Source: Candidatus Sungiibacteriota bacterium (lineage in GTDB: Bacteria > Patescibacteriota > Minisyncoccia > Sungbacterales > HO2-52-23). From it: a stretch of 64,000 nt of DNA. Every line of letters begins with the position of its first letter. Within the stretch, counting starts at the first letter, position 1. This document shows positions 4,122 through 26,690 of this stretch, piece after piece. The position numbers were made by a program, and so were the translations under genes. A model generated the notes under the pieces. That model was not told where the DNA came from. It saw only the letters and a program-made list of their open reading frames with translations, and did not search any database. The stretch lies in assembly GCA_016432465.1 (NCBI GenBank), contig CP066690.1:317538-381537 (forward strand), written 5' to 3'.

Positions 4122-5312
4122 TCAGTTTGGAACAGGGGGAGTTTCGTTTTTTTCTTCCTTCAACACCCCAAGAGACATCCTGTGTTCTTGAGGATCAATC
4201 AATAAAATCTTAAACTGGTATTCTTTACCAAGTTCCAGCTCCGATCTCATTTTTATTTCTGTGCCAAACTCGGATATGTGAACTAAACCCTGAATTCCTG
4301 ACTCCAGCTGGGCAAAAGACCCAAAGGGGTTAAATTTGGTTACGCGGGCGCGAACCAAATCTCCTTTTTTATACTTTTCAGCTATTTTCACCCAAGGATC
4401 TTCTTTAAGCTGTTTTAAAGAAAGCGATACTTTATCCCCCTGAATGTCAATAATTTTTGCGCTGACCCTCTCCCCGAGTTTCAAAAACTCGCGCGGGTCT
4501 TCAACCAAAGACCAGTCAATTTCCGATACGTGAATCAGGCCCTCAAGTCCGGCCCCTTCGTCAAACCGCATAAACGCACCGAAGTCAACAACCCCCGTTA
4601 TTTCTCCTTCAACCACGTCTCCGATTTTATACTTAGCCAGGGCCGAACGCGTCCCTTCCAGGTCGCGACCGCGCTCGGTGAAAATTAACTTGTCTTCCGC
4701 CGGACTCAAATCAAGTATTTTTACCGTAAGCTTCTGGCCCACCAACTTTTGCAGTTCCTGAAAGATCCTCTCTTTGTCTCCGCCTTCTACCCGGGGGTAA
4801 TTTTTTGCGGAAAGCTGGGAGGCGGGAAGAAACCCCTTTACGCCGCGGGCCTCAAGTATGAGTCCTCCCTTATTGGCTTCCTGAACAGGCAGTTCTAAAA
4901 CCTCTCCCTGCTCCAGCATTTTTTTAAGATCGCTCCAGTTCTTCTCTGTCCCAGCCTCCTTCAGAGAAAGCTCAACATAGCCGTCTTCATTATCCGGATC
5001 AACTACTTTGACGCTTACTATATCGCCGGGTTTTAAATTTTTTATAATATCCTGCGCCGCATAATACTCGCGTCCGTACACAATGCCGCTACCCTGAAAA
5101 CCAATATCAATAAATAATCTGTTAGTCCGCCTTTCAATCACCGCCCCTTCTATAATATCGCCAGCCTTAAAAAGCCTGCTCCCCCCCACGGTTTTCAAAA
5201 GTAATTCCATGGGGTGTTTGCCGTGTAAAGACGTATCGGCGCTGGTTTTGTTATTATTTCCAGTTATCTCTACCATCTTGGTGAGTATACGGGATAAAAC
5301 TTTACCTAGCAA
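4122..5312 (-). CDS. rpsA: 30S ribosomal protein S1 (four S1 domains)
   Basis: Repeated S1-domain signatures (GDIIEGAVIE..., GDIVSVKVV..., GDVVEGEITGVVDFGAF..., GDLVRARVTKFNPFGSFAQL); exact start uncertain (several in-frame Met). Confidence 0.75.
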   Translation of the reverse strand: MLGKVLSRILTKMVEITGNNNKTSADTSLHGKHPMELLLKTVGGSRLFKAGDIIEGAVIERRTNRLFIDIGFQGSGIVYGREYYAAQDIIKNLKPGDIVSVKVVDPDNEDGYVELSLKEAGTEKNWSDLKKMLEQGEVLELPVQEANKGGLILEARGVKGFLPASQLSAKNYPRVEGGDKERIFQELQKLVGQKLTVKILDLSPAEDKLIFTERGRDLEGTRSALAKYKIGDVVEGEITGVVDFGAFMRFDEGAGLEGLIHVSEIDWSLVEDPREFLKLGERVSAKIIDIQGDKVSLSLKQLKEDPWVKIAEKYKKGDLVRARVTKFNPFGSFAQLESGIQGLVHISEFGTEIKMRSELELGKEYQFKILLIDPQEHRMSLGVLKEEKNETPPVPN

Positions 5313-5354
5313 GAGACGCTTCTCTGGCAGAAAAAATTATGCTACACTTAAAGA

Positions 5355-5999
5355 ATGGTTATCACTTGGCTGGGACACTCGTGTTTTAAAATCCAATCAG
5401 GAGAATTTGTTATTGTTACTGATCCCTTTTCTAAAGACATAGGCCTTACCCCGCCCCGTTTCCGGGCGGATATTGTCCTCTCCACCCACGGACATTATGA
5501 TCACTCCAACACCGAAGCCCTTACGGGGGATCCTTTTATTATCAGCGGACCGGGCGAATACGAAGCAAGGGGTGTATACATCCACGGCTTGACAACATTT
5601 CACGATAAAAATCAAGGTAAGGAGCGCGGCACCAACACGATTTATAAAATTTTGGTTGAGGGCATAAACTTGGTGCACTTGGGCGACTTTGGAGAAAAAG
5701 AGTTAAGAAGCACCACCCTTGAAGAAATTGGCGACGCCGATATCCTCATAGTGCCGGTAGGCGGAAAATACACCATAGACGCGGAGGAAGCGGCCAAGGC
5801 GGTAAAACAAATAGAGCCTAAACTGGTAATACCCATGCATTACAAAATTCCGGGCCTGAAAATTACACTTGAAGGCGTGGACGCTTTTTTAAAAGAGCTG
5901 GGTGCGGGAAAAATAGAAGCGCAGGAAAAGCTGGTAATCAAAAAGAAGGACCTGGGTGAGGGGGAAAAAACCAAAGTAGTTTTAATGAAGCCGGCCTGA
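5355..5999 (+). CDS. MBL-fold metal-dependent hydrolase (UPF0173-like)
   Basis: MVITWLGHSCFKIQ... and HGHYDHS (HxHxDH) metallo-beta-lactamase motif. Confidence 0.75.
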   Translation: MVITWLGHSCFKIQSGEFVIVTDPFSKDIGLTPPRFRADIVLSTHGHYDHSNTEALTGDPFIISGPGEYEARGVYIHGLTTFHDKNQGKERGTNTIYKILVEGINLVHLGDFGEKELRSTTLEEIGDADILIVPVGGKYTIDAEEAAKAVKQIEPKLVIPMHYKIPGLKITLEGVDAFLKELGAGKIEAQEKLVIKKKDLGEGEKTKVVLMKPA

Positions 6000-6045
6000 C
6001 CAAAACCAGCCTCCGGAAAACGCGGGTCTCACAAATCCCTAAAAA

Positions 6046-6429
6046 ATGAAACCGCTTATTAAGTTTTTAGATGCGATACGGCGCCTTCCGGAAGAAGTAA
6101 GACGCGCCCTGGCCATAACCAGCACTGTGGCTGCAGCGCTCATAATTTTTTGGGCGTGGCGCGCAGCCGTAGTATCGCGCCTGGAAAGACCCGAAGAATT
6201 TAGAATGGTTAGGGAAACACCGATTTCTACAGAAAAAAATGTTTCATCAGAACCCGATGTCCTCGCACCCTCTGCCGGACTCGTAGAAACATTTCAGTCT
6301 CTAGAAAAATTTATTGTGCCTAAGCAGGGGACCGACCAGAAAAGCATGGGGTCAAAAAGAAACATTCTTGCTAGTATCAGCAGCGGACTAGAAAAAGCGT
6401 GGAGGTATGTTTATGATCCGCTAAAATAA
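6046..6429 (+). CDS. hypothetical membrane protein
   Basis: 127-aa ORF with one TM (ALAITSTVAAALIIFWAW); stop overlaps the gyrA start (taaATG). Confidence 0.5.
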   Translation: MKPLIKFLDAIRRLPEEVRRALAITSTVAAALIIFWAWRAAVVSRLERPEEFRMVRETPISTEKNVSSEPDVLAPSAGLVETFQSLEKFIVPKQGTDQKSMGSKRNILASISSGLEKAWRYVYDPLK

Positions 6430-9400
6430 ATGAACATAGGCAGAATTCAACAAAGAGAAATAGTGGAGGAGATGCGCGAGTCGTACCTTGACTACGCCAT
6501 GTCGGTCATTGTTGCTCGCGCGCTTCCCGACGTAAGAGACGGCCTGAAACCAGTGCACCGCCGGATTTTGTATTCAATGCATGAACTTGGCCTGACGCAT
6601 TCAGCAAAAACAAGAAAATGCGCAACGATTATCGGAGACGTATTGGGTAAATACCATCCTCATGGCGACGTGGCGGTTTATGATGCGCTGGTGCGCATGG
6701 CGCAAGAATTTTCACTTCGTTATCCCCTCGTTGAGGGGCAGGGAAATTTTGGTTGTTTCACGCAAGATACAAAAGTAAAACTCACCGATGGGCGGGATCT
6801 TTCATTCGGAGAGTTGGCGGAGGAACTCAAGACCGGAAAAAAGAATTATACATACACCGTGAACAGTCTTGGGCTTGTTGGTCTCGCGGAAATAAAACAT
6901 CCGCGTCTTACGAAAAAGAAGGCCCGTGTTATCACCGTTGTTTTAGATAACGGAGAAACAATACGCTGTACGCCCGATCACCGATTTATGATGCGAGATG
7001 GAACATATAAAGAAGCCGGGTCCCTTACGGAACATGACTCGTTGATGCCGCTCTACCAAAAACTATCAACGAAAACAGACAGACTGCAACGGGAAGGATA
7101 CCTATTGGTGTACCAGCCCAAAAAAGACGAATGGGTTCCGGCTCACCACTTGGCTGACAACTATAATCTGACGCGCCATATCTACCAAAAAAATGCCGGC
7201 CGCGTACGGCATCATGTGGACTTTAACAAACTCAACAATAACCCGGACAATGTCAAAAGGCTTGGCTGGGGCGAACATTGGAAAATCCACTATACACATG
7301 CGGCAAAACAACACCAAAAACCGGAATATCGGGAAAAAATCGCGTACGGGCGACGGATGTATTGGGCGGACGAGAAAAACAAAGAACACCACCGAAGCTT
7401 ACTTGCGGAGCGAAATCGCGTTAACTGGCAAAATCCCGAGTACCGAGAACGAATGAAGACATTCCTAAGTCAAGTCAACACCGAATATGTCAAGAAGCAT
7501 CCGGAAAAGAGGAACGAGTTTAGCGAGCGGGCAACACGAACGCTCAAACGCCTGTGGCAAGATCCAGAGTACCGGGCGACGATGCATCAAAAAATCATCA
7601 AAGGGAACAAAAATCATGTCAGCAACAAAACAGGAAAGCTAAAATTTTTAAACATTTGTAAAGAAACACTGAATCGTTTTCAGATACTTGAAGAAAAAGT
7701 ATATGAGCAAGCGCGTAAAGAGGTATATCCATATGGACGGGCGCCTTTATGGAAAACCGGATTGCAAAAATACTTTGCCGGAGATTCAAACCTTGTTCAT
7801 CAGGAATTGTTTAAAAATCACCGAGTTATAAGGATTGAGGACAAAAATGAGTACGAAGACGTTTTTGATCTAACCGTTGACGGAACTCATAATTTTGCGT
7901 TAGCAGCAGGTGTTTTTGTACATAATTCAATTGATGGGGACGCCGCCGCACACTATCGCTATACCGAAGCCCGCATGACCAGAATTGCCGAAGAGCTCCT
8001 GCGCGACATTGAAAAAAATACAGTTGAATTTCGCGACAACTACGATGCCACCCGTAAAGAACCCGTAGTACTTCCTGCGGCTCTTCCCGCTCTCCTGCTT
8101 AACGGAACTCTGGGAATAGCGGTGGGAATGGCAACCAGTATTCCTCCGCATAATCTTGGCGAGGTAACTGCGGCCCTGATCCACTTTAGCGACCACCCCA
8201 AGGCCTCGCTGGAGGATCTAATGGAGTTTATCAAGGGGCCGGACTTCCCCACCGGAGGAATAATTTTTGACGAAAAAGAAATCCGCGCCTCTTACGCATC
8301 GGGCAAGGGGGCCATTTTAAATCGTGGTGTGGCCGAGATTGAAGAGGGCGGCCGCGGAGCGCACCAAATTGTAATCACGGAGATTCCGTATCAGGTAAAC
8401 AAGGCCGAACTAATAGAAACCATGGCCGGTCTCGTGCAGGAAAAGAAAATTGAGGGCATACGAGATATTCGTGACGAATCCGACCGGCAAGGCATGCGCA
8501 TAGTGATTGAACTTAAACAAGATGCGCATCCGCAGAAGGTTTTAAACAATCTTTACCGGCACACTGACCTTGAAAAAACGTTTCACCTAAACATGCTTGC
8601 TTTGGTGGATGGGATTCAGCCGCAGGTACTCTCCATAAAAGAGGTGCTGGAAGAATTTCTGAAGCACCGAAACCAAGTAGTAACCCGCCGCACCAAGTTT
8701 GACCTGACCCGAACCCGCGAGCGCCTGCATATTTTAGAAGGACTGAAAAAGGCGCTGGACCACATTGACCGCGTAATTGAAACTATTAAAAAATCCAGAG
8801 ACCGCGATGAAGCGCGTGAAAATTTAATGAAGAAATTTGCCCTAACGGAGCTGCAGGCCGCCGCAATTCTAGAGATGAAACTGCAGACGCTGGCCGGTCT
8901 TGAACGACAAAAAATAGAGGATGAACTCAAAGAAAAGACGGCACTGGCCAAAAATCTTGAGGCCCTGCTGAAAGATCCTAAGAAAATCACAGATGTTATA
9001 AAAAGGGAATTGCACGAAGTAAGGGAAAAATACGGAGACGAGCGAAAAACTAAAGTCATAAAAACATCCCCCAAAGAACTTTCCGAGGAAGATTTGATTC
9101 CCGCAGAAGAGGTAGTGGTGGTGCTGACTCGCGGCGGTTACATAAAACGGATAAAACCGGAACAATACAAAATGCAGAAGCGCGGCGGTAAGGGGCTTAT
9201 CGGGATGGAGACCAAAGAGGAAGACATGGTGGAACATTTGCTAACCTGCAATACTCACTCCAACCTTCTTTTCTTCACCAGTTCCGGAAAGATTTATCAG
9301 GTTCGGACCTACGAAATTCCGGAAGGAAGTCGTATCTCCAAAGGCAAGGCAATCTTTAACTTTTTGGCGCTTTCCAGCAATGAGCAGATAAACTCCCTTC

Positions 9401-10041
9401 TGGCCACTGCCGGAGCGAAAAAGGGAGAACGCGAGGGTTACATAGTAATGGTGACCAAAGACGGCGTCATCAAAAAGGTTACAGCTTCGGCTTTTGAGAA
9501 CGTCCGCCGCTCAGGACTAATTGCTCTAACCCTAAGGGGCGGCGATCTGCTGCGTTGGGCCAAACTAACGAGCGGCTCTGACGAACTTATACTGGTTACC
9601 AAAAAGGGACAGTCCATAAGATTTGCAGAAAAAGATGTGCGTCCCATGGGACGACAAGCCAGCGGTGTTCGGGCCGTACGTCTGAAAAAAGGTGATGAGG
9701 TGGTGGGTATGGACGTAATCAATAAGGAACAAGTAGCCAACGGTAAATTGCTGGTCATAATGGAGAACGGATTTGGCAAACACACGTTAGTTAAACAATA
9801 CAAAAGGCAACGCAGGGGCGGATCAGGCATAAAAACTGCCAAAATTACTTCCAAAACAGGAAATGTTGTCGGGGCGCGTATCGTGGACAAGGAAGAAACG
9901 GAACTAATCACTATATCCAAAAAAGGTCAGGTTATCCACACTACCCTTGCGGCCATACCCGTGCTCGGCCGCGCCACCCAAGGAGTAAGAATTATGAAAT
10001 TGGAAACAGGAGACGCGGTGGCTTCTATTACTGCGCTGTAA
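6430..10041 (+). CDS. gyrA: DNA gyrase subunit A, interrupted by an in-frame intein
   Basis: N-terminus ...[17 protein letters not shown]...GKYHPHGD...GQGNFG, then C-extein [17 protein letters not shown] (catalytic Tyr region), GyrA box and C-terminal beta-pinwheel repeats; 1203 aa against ~810 aa expected without the insert. Confidence 0.9.
6754..7926 (+). mobile_element. Intein (391 aa) in gyrA carrying an HNH-type homing-endonuclease region and NUMOD-like repeats
   Basis: Starts with Cys right after GNFG (tgt at 6754); block-B TPDH; ends VFVHN (His-Asn) followed by +1 Ser (tca 7927); internal [27 protein letters not shown] (I-HmuI-like HNH) plus three ~30-aa repeats ending NPEYRE(K/R)M / DPEYRATM. 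Confidence 0.8.
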
Positions 10042-10665: not shown

Positions 10666-11943
10666 ATGGCTCGTCCTCTAAATACAGTGCTTGTTGTGGC
10701 CGGACTGGTTGCGGTCATTTTGATTCTGGCTCTGGCGGGAATACTGCCGGGAAGGAAAACCGCCAAGCCCCAGCCCGCTACTTTGGAATTTTGGGGATTG
10801 AAGGACGATGACCTTTTGTGGCGTCCTATTCTGGAAAAATTCAGGAAGGAAAAACCCCACCTTACCGTAAACTATCGGCGTTTTGACGAAATCTCTTACG
10901 AAGAAAACCTTATCAACAAAATGGCCGAGGGCCGCGGTCCGGACATCTTTTTCCTAAAAAACTCATGGGTTGAAAAACATCGCGACAAAATTTTACCCCT
11001 GCCGCAGGAAGTTTTAAAATTTACCGTCAAAGATTTTCAAAAAACTTTTGTAGATGTCGCCTCTCAAGATTTAACCACCAGCGACAATCAAATCCTTGGT
11101 CTGCCCCTTTTTGTGGACACCTTGGCTCTTTTTTATAACAAAGATGTTTTTAACGCCGGGGGCGTGGCCGAAACGCCTAAAACTTGGGGCGAGCTGGAAG
11201 CTGTAGCCAAGAATCTTACCAAAAAAACTGCGGCAGGAGACATCACAAAGTCAGGAGTTGCTCTGGGCGGATCTTCCAACATTGAACACGCGCTTGAGAT
11301 TTTAAGCGCTTTCGTACTGCAGGGGGGTGATAAAATTATAAATCGCGCTAACATGGCGCTGGAACTTGGCGCCCCATCCCGGGAGGCTCTGGATTTTTAT
11401 ACCTCATTTGCCAACGCTAAAAACCCAAACTTTTCCTGGACATTGCGCCAACCTAAGTCTCTGGACGCCTTTTCGCAGGAGCTTACGGCCATGGCCCTTG
11501 GCTTTGCGGATGATCTGCCCAGGGTTAAAGCCAAGAATCCGCATCTTAACTTCGGCGTATCTTTTCTGCCCCAGCGCGCCGATGCCAAAACCTTTGTAAC
11601 TTACGGCAGTTATTTTTTCCCGACCGTATCCCGCCTTTCCAACAATCCGCTTCCTGCTTGGGAGTTTATTCTCTTTGCCGCATCGGCTGATTCTTCAGAA
11701 ATTTATACTAAAAACTCGGGGAAGCCTCCGGCCCGACGCGATCTTCTGGCGAAAAACGCCGCGGCCCTTGAACTGGATATTTTTTATCGTCAGGCCCTTA
11801 CGGCCAAAAGCTGGCCCATTACTGACGAAAAAATAACTCGCCGTCTTTTTGAAGATACGATAGAATCCGTAGTAACCGGGGGAAATACCACAGACACGGC
11901 CTTGAATCGTCTAAGGGAGAAACTTAGTCTTAGTCTGCCATGA
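10666..11943 (+). CDS. ABC transporter extracellular solute-binding protein (family 1, sugar-type)
   Basis: N-terminal membrane anchor, then typical SBP_bac_1-like sequence (WGLKDDDLLWRPILEKF..., LPLFVDTLALFYNKDVF). Confidence 0.6.
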   Translation: MARPLNTVLVVAGLVAVILILALAGILPGRKTAKPQPATLEFWGLKDDDLLWRPILEKFRKEKPHLTVNYRRFDEISYEENLINKMAEGRGPDIFFLKNSWVEKHRDKILPLPQEVLKFTVKDFQKTFVDVASQDLTTSDNQILGLPLFVDTLALFYNKDVFNAGGVAETPKTWGELEAVAKNLTKKTAAGDITKSGVALGGSSNIEHALEILSAFVLQGGDKIINRANMALELGAPSREALDFYTSFANAKNPNFSWTLRQPKSLDAFSQELTAMALGFADDLPRVKAKNPHLNFGVSFLPQRADAKTFVTYGSYFFPTVSRLSNNPLPAWEFILFAASADSSEIYTKNSGKPPARRDLLAKNAAALELDIFYRQALTAKSWPITDEKITRRLFEDTIESVVTGGNTTDTALNRLREKLSLSLP

Positions 11944-12947
11944 AAATTATCCGCTATCGCACGCTTTCTTTTTGGACCGCAACAACTGGTTTGGTTTTAA
12001 TTGCGGCTGTTTTCGCAATACCATTTTTTGTTTCTGCTCAAGGTATAATCCCGCAGTGTCCGGACCGAATTATTGTTGATTCTGCGGGCAAAGAGCTGCA
12101 AAGGATTCCCAACGTCTGTACGGCCTGCGACCTTTTTAACCTTTCTCAAAGTGTACTTAATTTTGTCTGGAGGCTATCTGCGGTAGGGGCTGCCCTGATG
12201 CTTGGTTACGGCGGGTTTTTGATGATTGTGCCGGGAATTGGCGGAGAAAAATCAGCAGCCATGTATGAGAAGGGTAAAAAGGTCCTAACCAACACAGTTA
12301 TTGGCCTTGTGATTATCTTCTTTGCATGGCTGGCCGTAGATACTATAATAAAAGTGTTGGGGGGGAAAATAGCAGCTGGCTTTGGCGAAAATACGGAATA
12401 TCTGGGCGGCGGAGGCTTTGAATTCGGACCATGGAACCGGATTAACTGTTCGCCCCCGGAAACCAGAAAAGTTGTAGCATCGCCCGCAACAAAACCAACA
12501 ACACCTACGCCAGCCCCCATTCCATCCCCCACCACTAGTCCAACCCTAAATCACGCCGAAGCTCTTGGGATTTTTGCTGCTAATCGTATAAAAATTGAAT
12601 CCAAGGGAAACTGTGATGACCGAAACAGCGCCGTCTGTACTTCTCTTGAGGGCCTAAGGAGAACCACCCTCAATCGTGTAGTACTGTTTAAACTGGAATG
12701 TAACTGCGAGGTTACCGTAAGCGGAGGAACAGAGACGGGACACGAAGCAGGACAGTTTAGTCATGCCAGCGGGTATAAGGTTGATATTAAAAGAACAGCA
12801 GCGGTTGACTCCTATATCACCCGTAACTACCGCAACGCAGGAAAACGCAGTGACGGAGCACAAATTTTTGTTGCGCCGGACGGAGCAGAGTTTGCGCGTG
12901 AAAGCAGTCACTGGGACGTAAGGGGGTGGGATGTAACCGTCCGCTAA
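11940..12947 (+). CDS. membrane protein with N-terminal TrbC/VirB2-like pilin domain, Pro/Thr linker and C-terminal Cys-containing domain
   Basis: Signal/TM, then two TM helices in the same arrangement as the small pilin paralogs downstream (LMLGYGGFLMIVPG...VIGLVIIFFAWLAVDTIIKVLGG); PTTPTPAPIPSPTTSPT linker. Confidence 0.55.
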   Translation: MKIIRYRTLSFWTATTGLVLIAAVFAIPFFVSAQGIIPQCPDRIIVDSAGKELQRIPNVCTACDLFNLSQSVLNFVWRLSAVGAALMLGYGGFLMIVPGIGGEKSAAMYEKGKKVLTNTVIGLVIIFFAWLAVDTIIKVLGGKIAAGFGENTEYLGGGGFEFGPWNRINCSPPETRKVVASPATKPTTPTPAPIPSPTTSPTLNHAEALGIFAANRIKIESKGNCDDRNSAVCTSLEGLRRTTLNRVVLFKLECNCEVTVSGGTETGHEAGQFSHASGYKVDIKRTAAVDSYITRNYRNAGKRSDGAQIFVAPDGAEFARESSHWDVRGWDVTVR

Positions 12948-17728: not shown

Positions 17729-18259
17729 ATGGCTTCTCTCTTTTTTATTTTTATAACTTTGGTGCTTGCCGGGGCGGTTTTATTTTTAATTATTGAGTTT
17801 TACGTGGTAATAATAGGAGAATTTTTTGGGGCCCCATACGTAAAATCTAAAAAAGACAAAATAAAAACAATGCTGGAGCTTGCCCAGATTAAACCCGGAG
17901 AAAAGGTGATTGATCTTGGTTCGGGAGACGGTTCTCTTGTGACTGAAGCCGCGGGGCGCGGCGCAGAAGCAATTGGTGTTGAAATAAACCCCTTTCTTGT
18001 CTGGTACTCAAGATGGCGTATCAAAAAAGCCAATCTTCAGGATAAGACAAAGATTATCCGCGGCGACTTCAGAAACTTTTCTTTGGATCAGGCGAATGTT
18101 GTTTTTCTTTATCTCTGGCCGGAGACAGTAGCAAAACTTAAAGAAAAACTTATCAGAGAACTGCGGCCGGGAGCAAGGGTTATATCCAACGGTTTTCCTC
18201 TTGCCGGCTGGCACCCTCAAGCCGCAGAAAACGGCGTATTTCTCTACCGGCGCCGCTGA
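17729..18259 (+). CDS. class I SAM-dependent methyltransferase with N-terminal TM helix
   Basis: Motif I VIDLGSGDGSLV; acidic motif II; post-I motif IGVEINP. Confidence 0.6.
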   Translation: MASLFFIFITLVLAGAVLFLIIEFYVVIIGEFFGAPYVKSKKDKIKTMLELAQIKPGEKVIDLGSGDGSLVTEAAGRGAEAIGVEINPFLVWYSRWRIKKANLQDKTKIIRGDFRNFSLDQANVVFLYLWPETVAKLKEKLIRELRPGARVISNGFPLAGWHPQAAENGVFLYRRR

Positions 18260-18305
18260 ATTGCCTTTATTTTATAAATGCCTATACTGGAAACTGGCAG
18301 AAAAC

Positions 18306-19829
18306 ATGGACGGAGATGAAATTCTAAAAATAAACGGGGAGATATTTCAAGTGGCCGAAGGAGGACAGAGGCCAACCAGCGCAATTACTAAAGAATATCT
18401 TGCCCAAAAAGGGCTTCCTGCTGATATTGCACTGACTTTCGAGGACGTGACCATTTTAGATTTTAAGTCTGACGTCCCTTCCCGCAGCGCTATTACCGAC
18501 ACCAAATCGCGTCTGGCCCGCGATATTTTTTTGCAAACACCTATTGTCTCGGCCAACATGGATACCATTACCGAATCACAGATGGCTATAGCTCTCGCGC
18601 GACTGGGAGGACTGGGATTCATACATCAATTTCTTCCCATAGAGCGAAGGGTGGAAGAAATAAAAAAAGTGAAACGCGCTGACAGCGGAGTCATTGAAAA
18701 CCCGTTTAACATTTCGCCCGAAGCAACCGTGGCCGAGGCAAAAAACTCAATGGAGAATTTTCAGATTTCCGGCCTCCTAGTTATTGACCCCGTAAGTGCC
18801 AAACTGGTGGGCATCATCACCTCCCGCGATGTCCGGTTTGAGACGATGCTTGAAAAACGAGTGGCGGAGGTTATGACCAACTCTCCGCTCATTACCGCCC
18901 CGCCCGGAACCACACTTGAACAAGCACGTGTAATCTTAAAGAAAAATAAAATTGAAAAACTGCCCCTGGTGGATAATGAGGAACGCGTAGTGGGCTTAAT
19001 TACGGCCAAAGACCTTCTAAAAATTGAGCAATACCCCAAGGCCCTCCGCGATCCAAAGGGCCGCCTTAGGGTGGGAGCAACCATAGGGGTCAGCGGAAAA
19101 TTTATAGAAGAGGCCGACCAGCTTCTCCGCGCCGGGGCAGACATTATCCTTATAGATACGGCTCGCGGATTTTCAACGAAACTTGAAGAAGCAATTAAAA
19201 ACTTAAAAAATTCTTTAGGAGAAAAAGTAATAATTGCCGCCGGCAATGTTGATACACCCGAGGGAGCGTTACTTTTAATAGAAGCCGGCGCCGATGCCGT
19301 GAAAATTGGAATTGGCGGAGGCGCGGTTTGTAAAACCCGTGAGGGCCCGGGAGTGGGAGTGCCGCAAATCAGCGCGATTGCCGAGTGTACGGCCGTTGCC
19401 CTTAAACACCGTGTCCCCATAATTGCGGATGGAGGAATTAGAGGCGGGGCTGATTTTTGCAAAGCATTAGCGGCCGGAGCTTCCACCGTAATGATGGGCT
19501 GGATGTTTGCCGGATGCGAGGAAACGCCCGGAGAACCTTTTTATGAGGACGGAGAGCAATGGAAGATTTATCGCGGATCGGCCTCGCTTGAATTTCAACT
19601 ATCGCGATCGGACCGCGACGAAGGAGAAAGAGTCCGCACGCCAGAGGGAGTGCCGAGACGCGTCCGCTACAAAGGGGAAGCCGCTGATGTGATACACGAA
19701 CTTATGAGCTACCTCCGCTCTTCTATGAGTTATGTAGGCACCTGGACACTGGAGGAGTACAGAAAAAAAACAAGGTTTAGGAGACAGACCATTTCCGGAT
19801 ACGAGGAGGGAAAACCGGCAAGACCATAA
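18306..19829 (+). CDS. guaB: inosine-5'-monophosphate dehydrogenase
   Basis: LTFEDVTILDF, tandem CBS region, active-site loop GIGGGAVCKTREGPGVGVPQISAI; ATG 18306 chosen because the longer track ORF overlaps the upstream gene. Confidence 0.85.
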   Translation: MDGDEILKINGEIFQVAEGGQRPTSAITKEYLAQKGLPADIALTFEDVTILDFKSDVPSRSAITDTKSRLARDIFLQTPIVSANMDTITESQMAIALARLGGLGFIHQFLPIERRVEEIKKVKRADSGVIENPFNISPEATVAEAKNSMENFQISGLLVIDPVSAKLVGIITSRDVRFETMLEKRVAEVMTNSPLITAPPGTTLEQARVILKKNKIEKLPLVDNEERVVGLITAKDLLKIEQYPKALRDPKGRLRVGATIGVSGKFIEEADQLLRAGADIILIDTARGFSTKLEEAIKNLKNSLGEKVIIAAGNVDTPEGALLLIEAGADAVKIGIGGGAVCKTREGPGVGVPQISAIAECTAVALKHRVPIIADGGIRGGADFCKALAAGASTVMMGWMFAGCEETPGEPFYEDGEQWKIYRGSASLEFQLSRSDRDEGERVRTPEGVPRRVRYKGEAADVIHELMSYLRSSMSYVGTWTLEEYRKKTRFRRQTISGYEEGKPARP

Positions 19830-19903
19830 TTGTACCTCCGATCCCTTTACAAATTATTTGAAACCTACATAATGGTCCGTAGGCCCTTGAAAGGAGAATC
19901 AGT

Positions 19904-22468
19904 ATGTCTGCACGTATAGGTGCTGAAGAGCTAAAAGAAGCCATTACTAAACTCAAGACCCAACCACGTTATTTAAGAGCTCCTTCCGGAAAAAAGGTTC
20001 TTAAAAAAGCAGTTAAGTCCGGACTTGATTGGAAAAAACTAGAAGAACTTTTTGGCAGATCACAATCAGCCATAGAAAAAGCGCTTAGTTATCATGGGGT
20101 TGCCAAGCCCCGTAATAAAACTTCTGATTATAGCGAAGAACAGCTAAAGATTGCAAAAGAAAAATATACTGCATCGTTTTTGGTTGAATCTAAACAGGGG
20201 TCGGCAGAACTTAGCCAACAAATGGTTCAAGCATTAAATGCCCAACGCCTACAGGAAGGTAAAAAAACAGTAAGTCTAAACGCGCTGCGCTGCGCCATAC
20301 ACGATCTTAAGCCCGATTGGAAATGGGGCTGGCCCGCAGCCAAAACAACCGCAACTAGTCCGCGGACTAAGCGGGAAGAAAAACCGCCAGAATTTCTCCA
20401 ACGACGCTGGCCCGAACCGGAAACAATAGAAGTACCACGTGACAAATGGGAACGTCCCGGAGCACGGGTTGCCTATCTTTCTTACAGCGCTTATAGAAAT
20501 AGCGGCTGGCGTCAAGGACTACCGCAGCTAGCCGTAGAAATCGCAGCAAACTACGGCTGTCACTTTCCGGTATTTGCCGGCGGACTGCTTGATAAGGAGT
20601 GGGTTCAAAAAGAGGTTAAAAGGCTGACCGCCAATTTTGGCAGAAGATACGCTGGTGAGATCACGGAGCATGTTAAAGACGAAATCGTTCGGGCGCTATT
20701 GTCCACTCTCCCTAAGTCCAAAAAACCAGACGGAAGCCTAGCGCGCTGGTATTTAATGGCCAGCATCCCTTACGACGGCCCGGAACAGCAGGCAGAGGCA
20801 ATTTTAAGAAGACTGCAGGAGCTGCGCGAAGACGTGAGACAATATAAAACCGGTGGCGAAAGAATAGAGATTAAACAACCAGACGGAAGACCAAGTATTT
20901 GGCATGGTGTGGTGCTTCCCAAAAAAAGACGTCTTTCCTCAAAATATATGAGCGCCAAACCAGAACGGGATATTGAGGACGTTGAAGATCAAACCTCAAG
21001 AGGTTATCCGGATCTTTGGGTGCATGGCACTTCGGCAACGGCCATCTTCAAACCCAGCGGTGAACGCGCGGTGCCCTATATAACTCTTCCGGCTATACAT
21101 AAACTAGAGGCCGAAAAAAAACAAATCGCGGAAAATCAGGTTGGTCTTGCCATTGTTGAGGAAATGCCGGACGGCGACCGTTTAATTCACTGGTGGAGTT
21201 TACGTGACCTCATTGCCCGTGAACGGGGATTTATTACCGGTATAAAAGAGGGCGCAACCGATCTTCACAAAAAAATCGTTGCCATTATAAAACGGGAAGG
21301 GGCACGCCACCCCGGCCGTTTGGCAGATGAACTTGGAATTGACCGGCAAACCCTAAATCAGGAAATTCAATTTCTGGTAGAACCGAAACGCTCCGGCCGC
21401 CTTACTTGGCCGGGACTACAGTATGACGAACACTCTCAACGATATGATTTCCACGGAGACTGGACTCAGGAGATGCTTCGCTATGCCCTACCCAGAGACG
21501 GCGAGGGCTGGCATGAAGATTCTTTTCTATTTTTTGGATGCTTGCATGCAGGATACACCACTACTGACTATGACTTTGTAGTAAAGAACTTCCCTGAAAT
21601 TATTCTTAAATATGGCATTAAGGTTCTGGCGGGGGTTGGTGACTTTATAGCGGGACTCCATCATAGCTTCATGCATAAAGGCGAAATTTTCCAGTTGAAC
21701 AATACCGAGCAGGAACAGTTTGCCGGAGAGATCGTGGCAACCGTAATCTATAAAGTCTTTACGGCCAGATTTGAGGAAGCACTGAAATTATTTGAGGGAC
21801 GAACCCCCACCACGGAAGAAATAACTTCTTTGGTTGATAAATCGCTTCTTCTCTTCCTGATTAAGAAAGGGAACCACGACACGTGGCAGGAATATGACGG
21901 CAATACTGCCCTACAGAAATTCTACGATACGTTAACCGCACTTCTTCCTTACCATCTTCGGGTCTATCTTGCAGGAAAGGGTTTTACTACTATTGATCCT
22001 ACGGCTATTGTCAGAAAAAAAACGGTTCTTGTGCCCGAACACAGGCCCGTCTACACCCTTCCCTCCGGAATAAATGTTGGTTTAACCCACCCCCACATGG
22101 CCCGCGCTGATACCACCTCTTTAAGAGCAGAAAAGGCGCTTAAGTTTTTCGCCCAAAGATACGGATGTCAGGTTGTAGGTGTAGCCAACTTCCACGTTGC
22201 AGTTTGCGCCCATAAATGGTGGCCTAAAAACGGACAGTGTGTTGTCATGCAAACGGGAACCGAGGTCATCCTTACAGACTTTGAGTATAACAAGCTGAAG
22301 GGTCTTGACTTCGGACCGCTACTCCTTAAAACACTTTCTTATAAAGGAAGAATTTACAGAACAACAATGGCGGCCTTTAATAAGCCGCTGCTTACTGAAG
22401 AGGAAATTCCGCCAAAATGGACGGACGTGACGAAACTCAAGAAGAGACTGGGACTTCTGGGATATTAG
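19904..22468 (+). CDS. large multidomain protein: N-terminal unknown region, central winged-HTH-like segment, C-terminal calcineurin-like metallophosphoesterase domain
   Basis: RBS GAAAGGAGAATC then ATG 19904; C-terminal third carries ordered phosphoesterase motifs FFGCLHAG (variant of GDxHG), GVGDFIAGLHH (GDxxD), KGNHD (GNHE), GLTHPH (GH/xH); HTH-like KKIVAIIKREGARHPGRLADELGIDRQTLNQEIQFLV. Confidence 0.55.
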   Translation: MSARIGAEELKEAITKLKTQPRYLRAPSGKKVLKKAVKSGLDWKKLEELFGRSQSAIEKALSYHGVAKPRNKTSDYSEEQLKIAKEKYTASFLVESKQGSAELSQQMVQALNAQRLQEGKKTVSLNALRCAIHDLKPDWKWGWPAAKTTATSPRTKREEKPPEFLQRRWPEPETIEVPRDKWERPGARVAYLSYSAYRNSGWRQGLPQLAVEIAANYGCHFPVFAGGLLDKEWVQKEVKRLTANFGRRYAGEITEHVKDEIVRALLSTLPKSKKPDGSLARWYLMASIPYDGPEQQAEAILRRLQELREDVRQYKTGGERIEIKQPDGRPSIWHGVVLPKKRRLSSKYMSAKPERDIEDVEDQTSRGYPDLWVHGTSATAIFKPSGERAVPYITLPAIHKLEAEKKQIAENQVGLAIVEEMPDGDRLIHWWSLRDLIARERGFITGIKEGATDLHKKIVAIIKREGARHPGRLADELGIDRQTLNQEIQFLVEPKRSGRLTWPGLQYDEHSQRYDFHGDWTQEMLRYALPRDGEGWHEDSFLFFGCLHAGYTTTDYDFVVKNFPEIILKYGIKVLAGVGDFIAGLHHSFMHKGEIFQLNNTEQEQFAGEIVATVIYKVFTARFEEALKLFEGRTPTTEEITSLVDKSLLLFLIKKGNHDTWQEYDGNTALQKFYDTLTALLPYHLRVYLAGKGFTTIDPTAIVRKKTVLVPEHRPVYTLPSGINVGLTHPHMARADTTSLRAEKALKFFAQRYGCQVVGVANFHVAVCAHKWWPKNGQCVVMQTGTEVILTDFEYNKLKGLDFGPLLLKTLSYKGRIYRTTMAAFNKPLLTEEEIPPKWTDVTKLKKRLGLLGY

Positions 22469-22575
22469 TTCAAAACAAAAACCCCCTCGGGGGTTTTTCC
22501 ATTTGGATTTGATAAAAACAGCAACTTATGCCTATAGTAGACCTAGACTTTTGAAATCATGAAAGGTGGTTGTTT

Positions 22576-25031: not shown

Positions 25032-26690
25032 ATGACGTTCAAAAACCGTAAAGAAGCGGGGGAAAAATTAGCAGAAGCGCTCTTAGGCTTCAAAAACGCC
25101 AAGAATACACTTGTCCTTGCGCTGCCGCGTGGAGGAGTTGTGGTTGGGTACGAAATTTCGCAGGCTCTCAATTTACCGCTTGATATTGTGGTACCGCGCA
25201 AAATTGGTGCGCCCTCTGACCCGGAGTATGCCATTGGCGCAATTACTGAAAGCGGAGAAGGAATTTTTAATACCCGGGAACTAGCCGGCATTGACCAAGA
25301 CTGGTTTAAAAAAGAAGTTGAAAAAGAGAAAAAAGAGGCGGAGCGCAGACTCAAGCTTTATCGCGGCAATCGTCCTTACTCCCAGCTTTTAGGAAAAATA
25401 GTAATTATCGTTGATGACGGAGTAGCGACGGGATACACCATGCGTGCGGCCCTTAAATCAGTACGCGGCCAAAAACCACAAAAAATAATTGTCGCAGTGC
25501 CGCATGGAGCCAAAGATTCACTGGAACAATTGCGTAAAGAAGCCGACGAGGTAATTTCTCTGATTGAGCCGGAGTGGTACGGAGCAGTTGGAATGTTTTA
25601 CGAAGAATTTCCTCAAACTACTGACAAGGAAGTAATTCAACTTTTAGGCGGAGTCGGGCGCAAAGAAACGCTCACAATCAAACATGACGAAAAAAGGAGT
25701 ATAAAATTTAGAGTATTTATCTTAATACTTATTGCGGCCGCGGGTTTAATTATAAATGAAGTCTACTTACCTCACACCAAATTTCTCAATGCCCAAACAG
25801 TAGAAATAGCGCCCGGTCTTGGCCCACGTAAAATTGCGGAGCTTCTTAAACAAAACGGCGTCATAAGATCAAGGTGGACTTTTATACTCTATACAGCACT
25901 AACCGGTCGGGCCTCTGACCTTAAACCCGGAAATTACGTATTCTTTAATTCTGCCGCAATCCCATCTGTTGTCCGTGACCTTGTACGCGGCGGAACTAAC
26001 GAGATCGCGCTTACTATTCCAGAGGGATGGAGCACTAAAGATATTGCCCGTTATCTGGAAAGTCGGGGGCTTGGAACCTACCACGATCTCCTAAAACTTA
26101 TATCTGTCCAGCCTCCGGGGTTGGACAAATTTGACTTTCTTAAAGATAAACCAAAAAACGCCGGACTTGAGGGGTATCTTTTTCCTGACACCTATAGAGT
26201 TTTTAAAAACGCAGTGCCGGAAGACATTGTGGTAAAAATGCTTGAAAATTTTGATAAAAAGCTGGGGCCGGAGCTACGTCAAGAAATTTCCCGCCAAGGA
26301 AAAACTACTTTTGAAATTATAACTACGGCCTCGCTCATTGAAAAAGAAGTGGTCTCGGACGAAGATCGCGCGCTAGTTTCGGGGATTCTTTGGAAACGGC
26401 TTGAAACTGGAGTTGGACTTCAGGTGGATGCAACCATAAATTATATCACCGGTAAAAAAACTACAAAAATTTCACGGGAGGAAACCCAAATTGACTCACT
26501 ATATAACACCTATAAATACCGCGGCCTTCCTCCGGGGCCAATTGCCAACCCCGGCCTTTCCGCTATCCGCGCGGCTATTTATCCCCAAGAGTCGCCGTAT
26601 CTTTATTATCTTTCCACACCCAACGGACAAACCATATTTTCAACAACGCTAGAAGAACACAATCTTGCTAAGGCAAAATATCTAAAATGA
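25032..26690 (+). CDS. possible fusion: N-terminal phosphoribosyltransferase domain + C-terminal MltG/YceG endolytic transglycosylase
   Basis: PRTase motif KIVIIVDDGVATGYTMRAA (res ~120-140); then TM RVFILILIAAAGLII and MltG-like region (PEGWSTKDIARYLE..., GLPPGPIANPGLSAIRAAIYP); a single continuous frame with no stop between domains. Confidence 0.6.
   Translation: MTFKNRKEAGEKLAEALLGFKNAKNTLVLALPRGGVVVGYEISQALNLPLDIVVPRKIGAPSDPEYAIGAITESGEGIFNTRELAGIDQDWFKKEVEKEKKEAERRLKLYRGNRPYSQLLGKIVIIVDDGVATGYTMRAALKSVRGQKPQKIIVAVPHGAKDSLEQLRKEADEVISLIEPEWYGAVGMFYEEFPQTTDKEVIQLLGGVGRKETLTIKHDEKRSIKFRVFILILIAAAGLIINEVYLPHTKFLNAQTVEIAPGLGPRKIAELLKQNGVIRSRWTFILYTALTGRASDLKPGNYVFFNSAAIPSVVRDLVRGGTNEIALTIPEGWSTKDIARYLESRGLGTYHDLLKLISVQPPGLDKFDFLKDKPKNAGLEGYLFPDTYRVFKNAVPEDIVVKMLENFDKKLGPELRQEISRQGKTTFEIITTASLIEKEVVSDEDRALVSGILWKRLETGVGLQVDATINYITGKKTTKISREETQIDSLYNTYKYRGLPPGPIANPGLSAIRAAIYPQESPYLYYLSTPNGQTIFSTTLEEHNLAKAKYLK

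Follow-up and report, generated by a model that had tools for sequence, protein, structure and literature searches.

What is the large protein encoded between guaB and lon in a Candidatus Sungiibacteriota genome, and on what does it act? In the window, by which we mean the whole 64,000-nucleotide stretch of contig CP066690.1 that was analysed, a single open reading frame (ORF) at 19904..22468 on the + strand encodes an 854-aa protein that is 100 % identical to HYW89_01750, a hypothetical protein at NCBI from a Candidatus Sungiibacteriota metagenome-assembled genome (MAG). The original prediction, made from the letters of the DNA, placed this ORF between guaB and lon, and the ORF list agrees: guaB, encoding IMP dehydrogenase (IMPDH), ends at 19829 and the lon protease gene starts at 22570. 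The G+C content of the gene (0.47) is that of its flanks. Our answer as a whole is tentative: we read the protein as a core enzyme of the Candidate Phyla Radiation (CPR), in which a dead metallophosphoesterase (MPE) domain, a winged helix-turn-helix (wHTH) and a live two-metal MPE domain act together on nucleic acid. The chemical part of this reading is considerably firmer: the protein is probably a working MPE hydrolase with two metals, a Cys among their ligands and a dead MPE partner domain. The parts of the gene, in window coordinates, are:

19904..22468, + strand: whole gene, tandem-MPE/wHTH protein of 854 aa (ORF list; identical database entry)
19904..20383, + strand: N-terminal extension, aa 1-160, basic (isoelectric point (pI) 9.9), all-helical, lineage-specific
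20396..21238, + strand: domain A, aa 165-445, degenerate MPE fold without ligands
20918..21019, + strand: conserved loop in domain A, aa 339-372, predicted disordered
21251..21451, + strand: wHTH, aa 450-516, three helices and a beta-hairpin wing with a conserved W-P-G
21494..22465, + strand: domain B, aa 531-854, catalytic-type MPE domain
21536..21553, + strand: motif I, G545-C546-L-H548-A-G550, Cys in place of the canonical Asp
21638..21664, + strand: motif II, G579-D580-F-I-A-G584-L-H-H587, with D580 as the bridging Asp
21869..21886, + strand: motif III, G656-N657-H658-D659-x-W661
22088..22093, + strand: motif IV, H729-P730
22187..22195, + strand: motif V, N762-F763-H764, Asn in place of the first His of G-H-x-H

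Domain B keeps the order and spacing of the five MPE motifs (D-x-H, G-D, G-N-H-[DE], H and G-H-x-H). The translation contains FFGCLHAGY (aa 543-551), GVGDFIAGL (577-585), KKGNHDTW (654-661), GLTHPHM (726-732) and ANFH (761-764), and thus the GDFIAG, GNHD and GLTHPH motifs that the original prediction had listed in this order. Conservation was assessed in two sets, one of 129 full-length representatives with pairwise identities of ≤50 %, and one of 65 sequences with identity to the query down to 20 %. In the first set C546, H548, G579, D580, G584, G656, N657, H658 and H729 are found in 129/129 sequences and N762 and H764 in 128/128, while H587 (122/129), W661 (123/129) and P730 (118/129) show some variation and D659 (104/129) is replaced by Cys in 20 sequences. 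These same invariant residues, N762 and H764 included, are together with E794 the sole invariant columns of the entire protein in the 65-sequence alignment. All eight canonical ligand or catalytic positions are invariant: six hold the canonical residue (H548, D580, N657, H658, H729 and H764) and two hold a non-canonical, ligand-capable one, namely C546 for the Asp of motif I and N762 for the first His of motif V. Since the ligand columns stay invariant while the rest of the protein diverges to 20 % identity, they carry the signature of a maintained active site.

The Cys in motif I was the oddity on which the original prediction turned, with the question of whether homologues share it; as the 129/129 count shows, they do. 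We aligned the profile of domain B (129 sequences) by hhalign to the sequences deposited in the PDB for Dbr1 of E. histolytica and SbcD of E. coli. In this register G-C-x-H falls on G-C-V-H of Dbr1 and on S-D-W-H of SbcD, and G-D falls on motif II, which places Cys546 at the canonical first-Asp position, on the SbcD Asp and the Dbr1 Cys. Judging by its conservation, Cys546 is a defining feature of the family and no local oddity. Such a Cys is compatible with catalysis, because that of Dbr1, the eukaryotic RNA lariat debranching enzyme, is functional and essential, with an activity of 7 % in the C11D mutant (PMC5113202). Cys-x-His has been presented as distinguishing Dbr1 from all other MPE clades (PMC5113202), and Dbr1 purifies with Fe2+/Zn2+ (PMC10470207). 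Our literature search turned up no earlier account of this CPR family or of any prokaryotic MPE with Cys-x-His.

The fold was established from structure. An AlphaFold2 (AF2) model on a 21-sequence alignment, with a predicted local distance difference test score (pLDDT) of 78 and a predicted template modelling score (pTM) of 0.73, was compared to the PDB with Foldseek. It matched calcineurin-like MPEs and nothing else: the top match is B. subtilis YydB, and the others include purple acid phosphatases, SbcD, SMPDL3A, the B-subunits of Pol zeta/delta, Mre11, LpxH and PolD DP1. The four-layer alpha/beta/beta/alpha sandwich of MPEs is present, in keeping with the calcineurin-like catalytic domain originally predicted, and domains A and B both have this fold. 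At the family level, Pfam Metallophos is reached by 11/65 members alone (E<=0.01, best 5.5e-6), and PHROG 7339 'DNA repair exonuclease' gives a marginal match (E 0.005) over motifs I-II. Direct profile searches had left open whether the motifs were coincidental, a doubt raised at the outset; the family-level and structure-level searches answered it with an MPE fold. In the model the chain ends ~30 residues past the MPE core, and conserved H587, R734, T737, S739, R741, E794 and K799, which the model puts in or next to poorly predicted loops around the site, are candidate substrate-binding elements.

Domain A is a second, degenerate copy of the same fold. By hhalign it did not match domain B with 21 sequences and matched it weakly with 129 (P 0.018), with beta1-alpha-beta2 in register with motifs I and II. 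We assigned it to the MPE fold because a structure search of domain A alone, a separate look at the N-terminal part that the original prediction had proposed, decided where the sequence comparison stayed weak. In the weak hhalign register, the column of Cys546 holds Arg, Gly or Tyr, that of His548 holds Asp, Asn, Pro or Ala, and that of the bridging Asp holds Gly227 (105/129); the 129-sequence alignment has no equivalent of Asn-His or His-x-His in domain A. The domain has lost its metal site, with none of the ligands kept, and the pair represents a duplication followed by inactivation of one copy. A loop of domain A (aa 339-372) follows the pattern PKxxRLxSKYMSA...ExDIxD, with R343, Y348, S350, E354, I357 and D359 invariant among close homologues. 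It is predicted to be disordered, its pLDDT lying below 50 in both models, and it could be a binding site for a partner or extend to the active site.

Between the two domains, the stretch that had been called winged-helix-like is indeed a wHTH, with a MarR/ArsR/Zalpha-like three-helix bundle and beta-hairpin wing and with profile matches. Library searches of the window protein gave sub-threshold winged-helix matches at aa 453-492, and hmmsearch of the PDB with the close-family and the wide family profiles gave wHTH matches only. We do not read the likeness to Zalpha as functional and see minimal wHTHs only; as we read the alignment, the window protein lacks the Tyr of Zalpha. AF2 models the extension at aa 1-160 as purely helical. 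Most members lack this extension, and only about 1/4 of representatives have >30 residues before domain A. No Pfam match was found in the extension of the window protein itself; those of some relatives match Myb_DNA-binding (2.8e-5) and, below threshold, HTH_69 (0.0026) and HTH_32 (0.0017). A description of the dead MPE – wHTH – live MPE architecture was not found in our literature search.

The family is larger than its close clade. A word-indexed search returned 21 close homologues, all Sungbacteria-like, and a repeat homologue search with a wide alignment recovered this close clade alone and nothing beyond. When 1.84 billion cluster representatives were searched exhaustively with a profile, at least 187 family representatives came up, counted as representatives of clusters at 50 % identity, 133 of them at E<=1e-30. 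Most have a length of 650-720 aa and span profile positions ~105-770, and therefore the conserved core begins at ~aa 165 of the window protein. A survey with a single peptide pattern found 14 loci among GTDB species representatives, so the 14 genomes are a lower bound. They come from candidate division WWE3, Kaiserbacteria, Wolfebacteria, other Parcubacteria and Patescibacteria, and bins labelled Saccharibacteria. No copy turned up on 2.9 million viral contigs searched with four peptide patterns. The family is thus conserved from WWE3 to Parcubacteria, and is a CPR-restricted, unannotated MPE family.

Two records in this survey deserve a remark. The sole member in a 'Gammaproteobacteria' bin (L019, contig CAYPMU010000252.1, 1558 bp) probably reflects mis-binning and not a genuine non-CPR occurrence. 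The MAG WY5.bin81 has two distinct family copies on two contigs (L011 and L012), each followed after 3-4 bp by a PCMT gene; these are either true paralogues or the product of a mixed bin.

How might such a protein work? A two-metal MPE mechanism has been laid out for Rv0805, Mre11 and Dbr1 (PMC5113202). By extension from the superfamily mechanism, domain B would hold two metal ions, with Cys546, His548, the bridging Asp580 and His764 as the likely ligands of site 1 and Asp580, Asn657, His729 and Asn762 as those of site 2. A metal-bound, metal-activated water would serve as the nucleophile for hydrolysis of the phosphoester, and His658 would either stabilise the transition state or serve as the general acid. 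If the parallel with Dbr1 holds, the ion preferred at site 1 should be a soft one (Fe2+/Zn2+) because of the thiolate. Dead domain A could serve as a built-in pseudo-dimer partner, standing in for the second subunit of Mre11/SbcD homodimers, while the wHTH, joined in the Sungbacteria lineage by the basic helical N-extension, presumably holds the nucleic-acid substrate.

The likeliest role is that of a housekeeping nuclease or phosphodiesterase with DNA or RNA as its substrate, although the nucleic-acid substrate, taken alone, remains a tentative assignment. We favour it, and domain A as a stand-in for an Mre11/SbcD-type second subunit, because of the wHTH, the HTH-type extensions of some relatives and the presence of nuclease-type MPEs (DP1, Mre11 and SbcD) among the best structural matches of both domains A and B. 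The high pI of the N-extension and the PHROG match to a DNA repair exonuclease are further hints. Several points weigh against this reading. Searches of the window protein in Pfam, NCBIfam, PADLOC and PDB sequences (phmmer) gave no MPE match even at E<=10, at which Pfam returned two sub-threshold HTH models only. The recognition helix of the wHTH is poorly conserved in the 65-sequence wide family, and wHTHs can also serve protein contacts or regulation. The pseudo-dimer is an analogy rather than a result. Lastly, the neighbours Lon, AAA+ and PCMT, if meaningful, suggest protein quality control and not nucleic-acid metabolism.

These neighbours were identified by clustering all ORFs in 20 related loci (given here by L numbers) and annotating the recurrent ones:

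Directly upstream in the window, L001, L003 and L016: guaB (IMPDH)
Downstream and on the same strand in most of 12 loci, but on the opposite strand in L006 and L020: PCMT methyltransferase and/or YceG
In 6 loci (L007, L009, L014, L015, L016 and L018; WWE3, Wolfebacteria and a 'Saccharibacteria' bin): AAA_2/ClpB-D2-like ATPase
In the window and L002: Lon, which takes the slot of the AAA_2/ClpB-D2-like ATPase in Sungbacteria
Near the family gene in various loci: rplJ-rplL, mraZ-rsmH, uvrD, HU, alaS and metK

The PCMT gene starts 3-17 bp after the family gene in L011, L012 and L016. The surroundings of the family gene, in the window and in the 20 related loci, are free of integrases, transposases, SMC-like partners and known defence genes. 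From this conserved housekeeping synteny without mobile or defence neighbours, we conclude that the gene belongs to the core genome of part of the CPR and is passed on vertically, and that it is not part of a defence island. The linkage to Lon, AAA+ and PCMT may be functional or may merely reflect ancestral gene order.

Which other functions would fit? The alternative that survives best, though we consider it rather unlikely, is a small-molecule nucleotide phosphohydrolase (a 5'/3'-nucleotidase, cyclic-nucleotide phosphodiesterase or Ap4A hydrolase) for salvage or signalling, with the wHTH coupling it to regulation. The structural likeness to 5'-nucleotidases is confined to ~198 aligned residues of the MPE domain. 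Unlike 5'-nucleotidase/NadN/UshA, the window protein lacks a C-terminal substrate-binding domain, with no match to Pfam 5_nucleotid_C in it or in the 65 members, and no secretion signal was noted; the missing substrate domain rules out a UshA-type nucleotidase. UshA also has a different ligand set, with Asp-x-His and His-x-Gln motifs.

Clearly less probable is a protein phosphatase or eraser of phospho-signals working with its quality-control neighbours, namely Lon, the ClpB-D2-like AAA+ protein and the PCMT repair methyltransferase. The linkage to Lon (window and L002), to the AAA_2/ClpB_D2-small ATPase (6 loci) and to PCMT recurs in several CPR phyla and is what speaks for this alternative, as does the established inclusion of the PPP protein phosphatases in the MPE superfamily.

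The protein could in principle be a catalytically inactive scaffold or transcription factor, its MPE domains being structural like those of the Pol alpha/delta/epsilon B-subunits, Vps29 and GAP50 while the wHTH does the work. Domain A does resemble these inactive modules in having no metal site, but here the dead module shares a chain with a live MPE, and there is neither a polymerase partner nor an oligonucleotide/oligosaccharide-binding (OB) fold. Known inactive MPEs lose their ligands, whereas domain B has kept every ligand position unchanged in 129 or more diverged sequences, and domain A shows what decay looks like within the same protein. This makes an inactive protein improbable.

The Cys-x-His motif invites a further comparison. 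A bacterial enzyme that has converged on the activity of Dbr1, as a 2'-5' phosphodiesterase for debranching lariat or branched nucleic acids (for instance group II intron lariats or msDNA-like branches), would account for an invariant motif I that is the hallmark of Dbr1 (PMC5113202) and aligns on its metal-holding Cys; we regard this specific activity as very improbable. Dbr1 is not a close neighbour of the window protein in sequence or structure and has His-x-His in motif V, and the Pfam DBR1 C-terminal domain is absent from the window protein and the 65 members, which contain HTH and Metallophos families only. Orthology to Dbr1 is rejected on these three grounds, and the Cys common to both is best read as convergence.

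Membership in the SbcD/Mre11 family fails in a similar way. Compared with Mre11/SbcD and PolD DP1, the window family has replaced the Asp of motif I and the first His of motif V, and we recognised no capping or OB-fold domain of their kind in the window protein. The NCBIfam SbcD/Mre11 models match neither the window protein nor the 65 members, and no Rad50/SbcC (SMC-like) partner gene is adjacent in the window or the 20 related loci. The C-x-H/N-x-H motifs, the lack of a partner gene and the lack of a model match together rule it out.

An anti-phage defence or mobile-element nuclease of the HTH-nuclease fusion type, a defence theme that the original prediction raised, is barely credible and largely refuted: such fusions are common in defence systems and the best Foldseek match, YydB, has no assigned role, but the window protein has 0 matches in PADLOC (PADLOC-DB v2), those of family members are weak (best 1.6e-4) and mostly to the CRISPR-associated regulator models CasR, Csa3 and CARF3, no copy was found on viral contigs, the G+C content equals that of the flanks, and the housekeeping synteny, devoid of integrases, transposases and known defence genes, is kept over phylum-level distances.

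We return to the preferred reading, a dead and a live MPE joined by a wHTH and acting on nucleic acid, and to what it would add. CPR/Patescibacteria account for much of bacterial diversity, and for most of the conserved proteins specific to their lineages no function has been assigned. Here a CPR family missed by current profile libraries comes with a concrete biochemical prediction, namely that it hydrolyses phosphoesters with two metals and a thiolate among their ligands. Its fold and motif order are those of the MPE superfamily (PF00149 Metallophos clan), and its general chemistry is familiar. What sets it apart is the ligand substitutions, Cys-x-His in motif I and Asn-x-His in motif V, and the dead MPE – wHTH – live MPE architecture, in which the catalytic-type domain is fused to a ligand-less second MPE domain and a wHTH; the window protein itself is recognised by none of the Pfam, NCBIfam and PADLOC models. 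The family would be a second, independent natural clade with Cys-x-His, a feature treated as unique to Dbr1, and could help explain the role of the cysteine in metal selectivity, redox sensitivity or leaving-group chemistry. The fused dead and live domains also offer a tidy natural example of duplication with later inactivation of one copy. A bolder proposition, which we consider unlikely, is that the protein is the founding example of an undescribed CPR-wide nucleic-acid-processing class. It would be a single-chain dead/live MPE pseudo-dimer bridged by a winged helix, with a Cys/His/Asp/His + Asp/Asn/His/Asn centre that arose independently of Dbr1. This centre would confer an unusual metal preference (Fe/Zn) or an unusual chemistry, perhaps cleavage of 2'-5' or otherwise atypical phosphodiesters, and the protein would fill a housekeeping nuclease role otherwise missing in reduced genomes.

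The remaining observations concern the surroundings of the gene. Promoter-like hexamers occur in both flanking spacers, as consensus matches at background frequency, and the region as a whole has no more such sites than shuffled sequence would give; the one between guaB and the gene is:

19846..19873, + strand: promoter-like site in the guaB-to-gene spacer, TTTACA-16-CATAAT, 10/12 (consensus match only)

The first + strand terminator-like hairpin 3' of the gene sits after lon and is likewise a consensus match at background frequency. Upstream, the longest guaB ORF (18201-19829, +) has a TTG start and overlaps by ~60 nt a 176-aa class I methyltransferase ORF (17729-18259, +) with a weak match to the PCMT family (1.9e-6); the true guaB start probably lies further downstream than this TTG. 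Downstream of lon, a YceG/MltG gene (25032-26690, +) has a fused N-terminal phosphoribosyltransferase (Pribosyltran aa 8-187, YceG aa 257-548). On the related Sungbacteria contig of L002, a PCMT+YceG fusion (5266-7005) occupies the YceG/MltG slot. In the WWE3 loci (L007 2837-4544, L009 4093-5761, L015 4032-5871 and L018 800-2465), the AAA_2 (ClpB-D2-like) ATPase gene precedes the MPE gene and overlaps a ~130-160-aa ORF that contains 'HLIPQSRGGKH...' and has no Pfam match.

The wider window is ordinary chromosome, with gyrA, methyltransferases, a solute-binding protein and an SPFH protein. The GyrA homologue (6430-10041, +; 1203 aa) is interrupted by an intein (Intein_splicing, E 2.4e-20 at aa 119-499), which lies inside a protein with DNA_topoisoIV (4e-156) and gyrase C-terminal repeats. 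A 335-aa protein with a T4SS_pilin domain (E 4.8e-9) is encoded at 11940-12947 (+) and adjoins the solute-binding protein.

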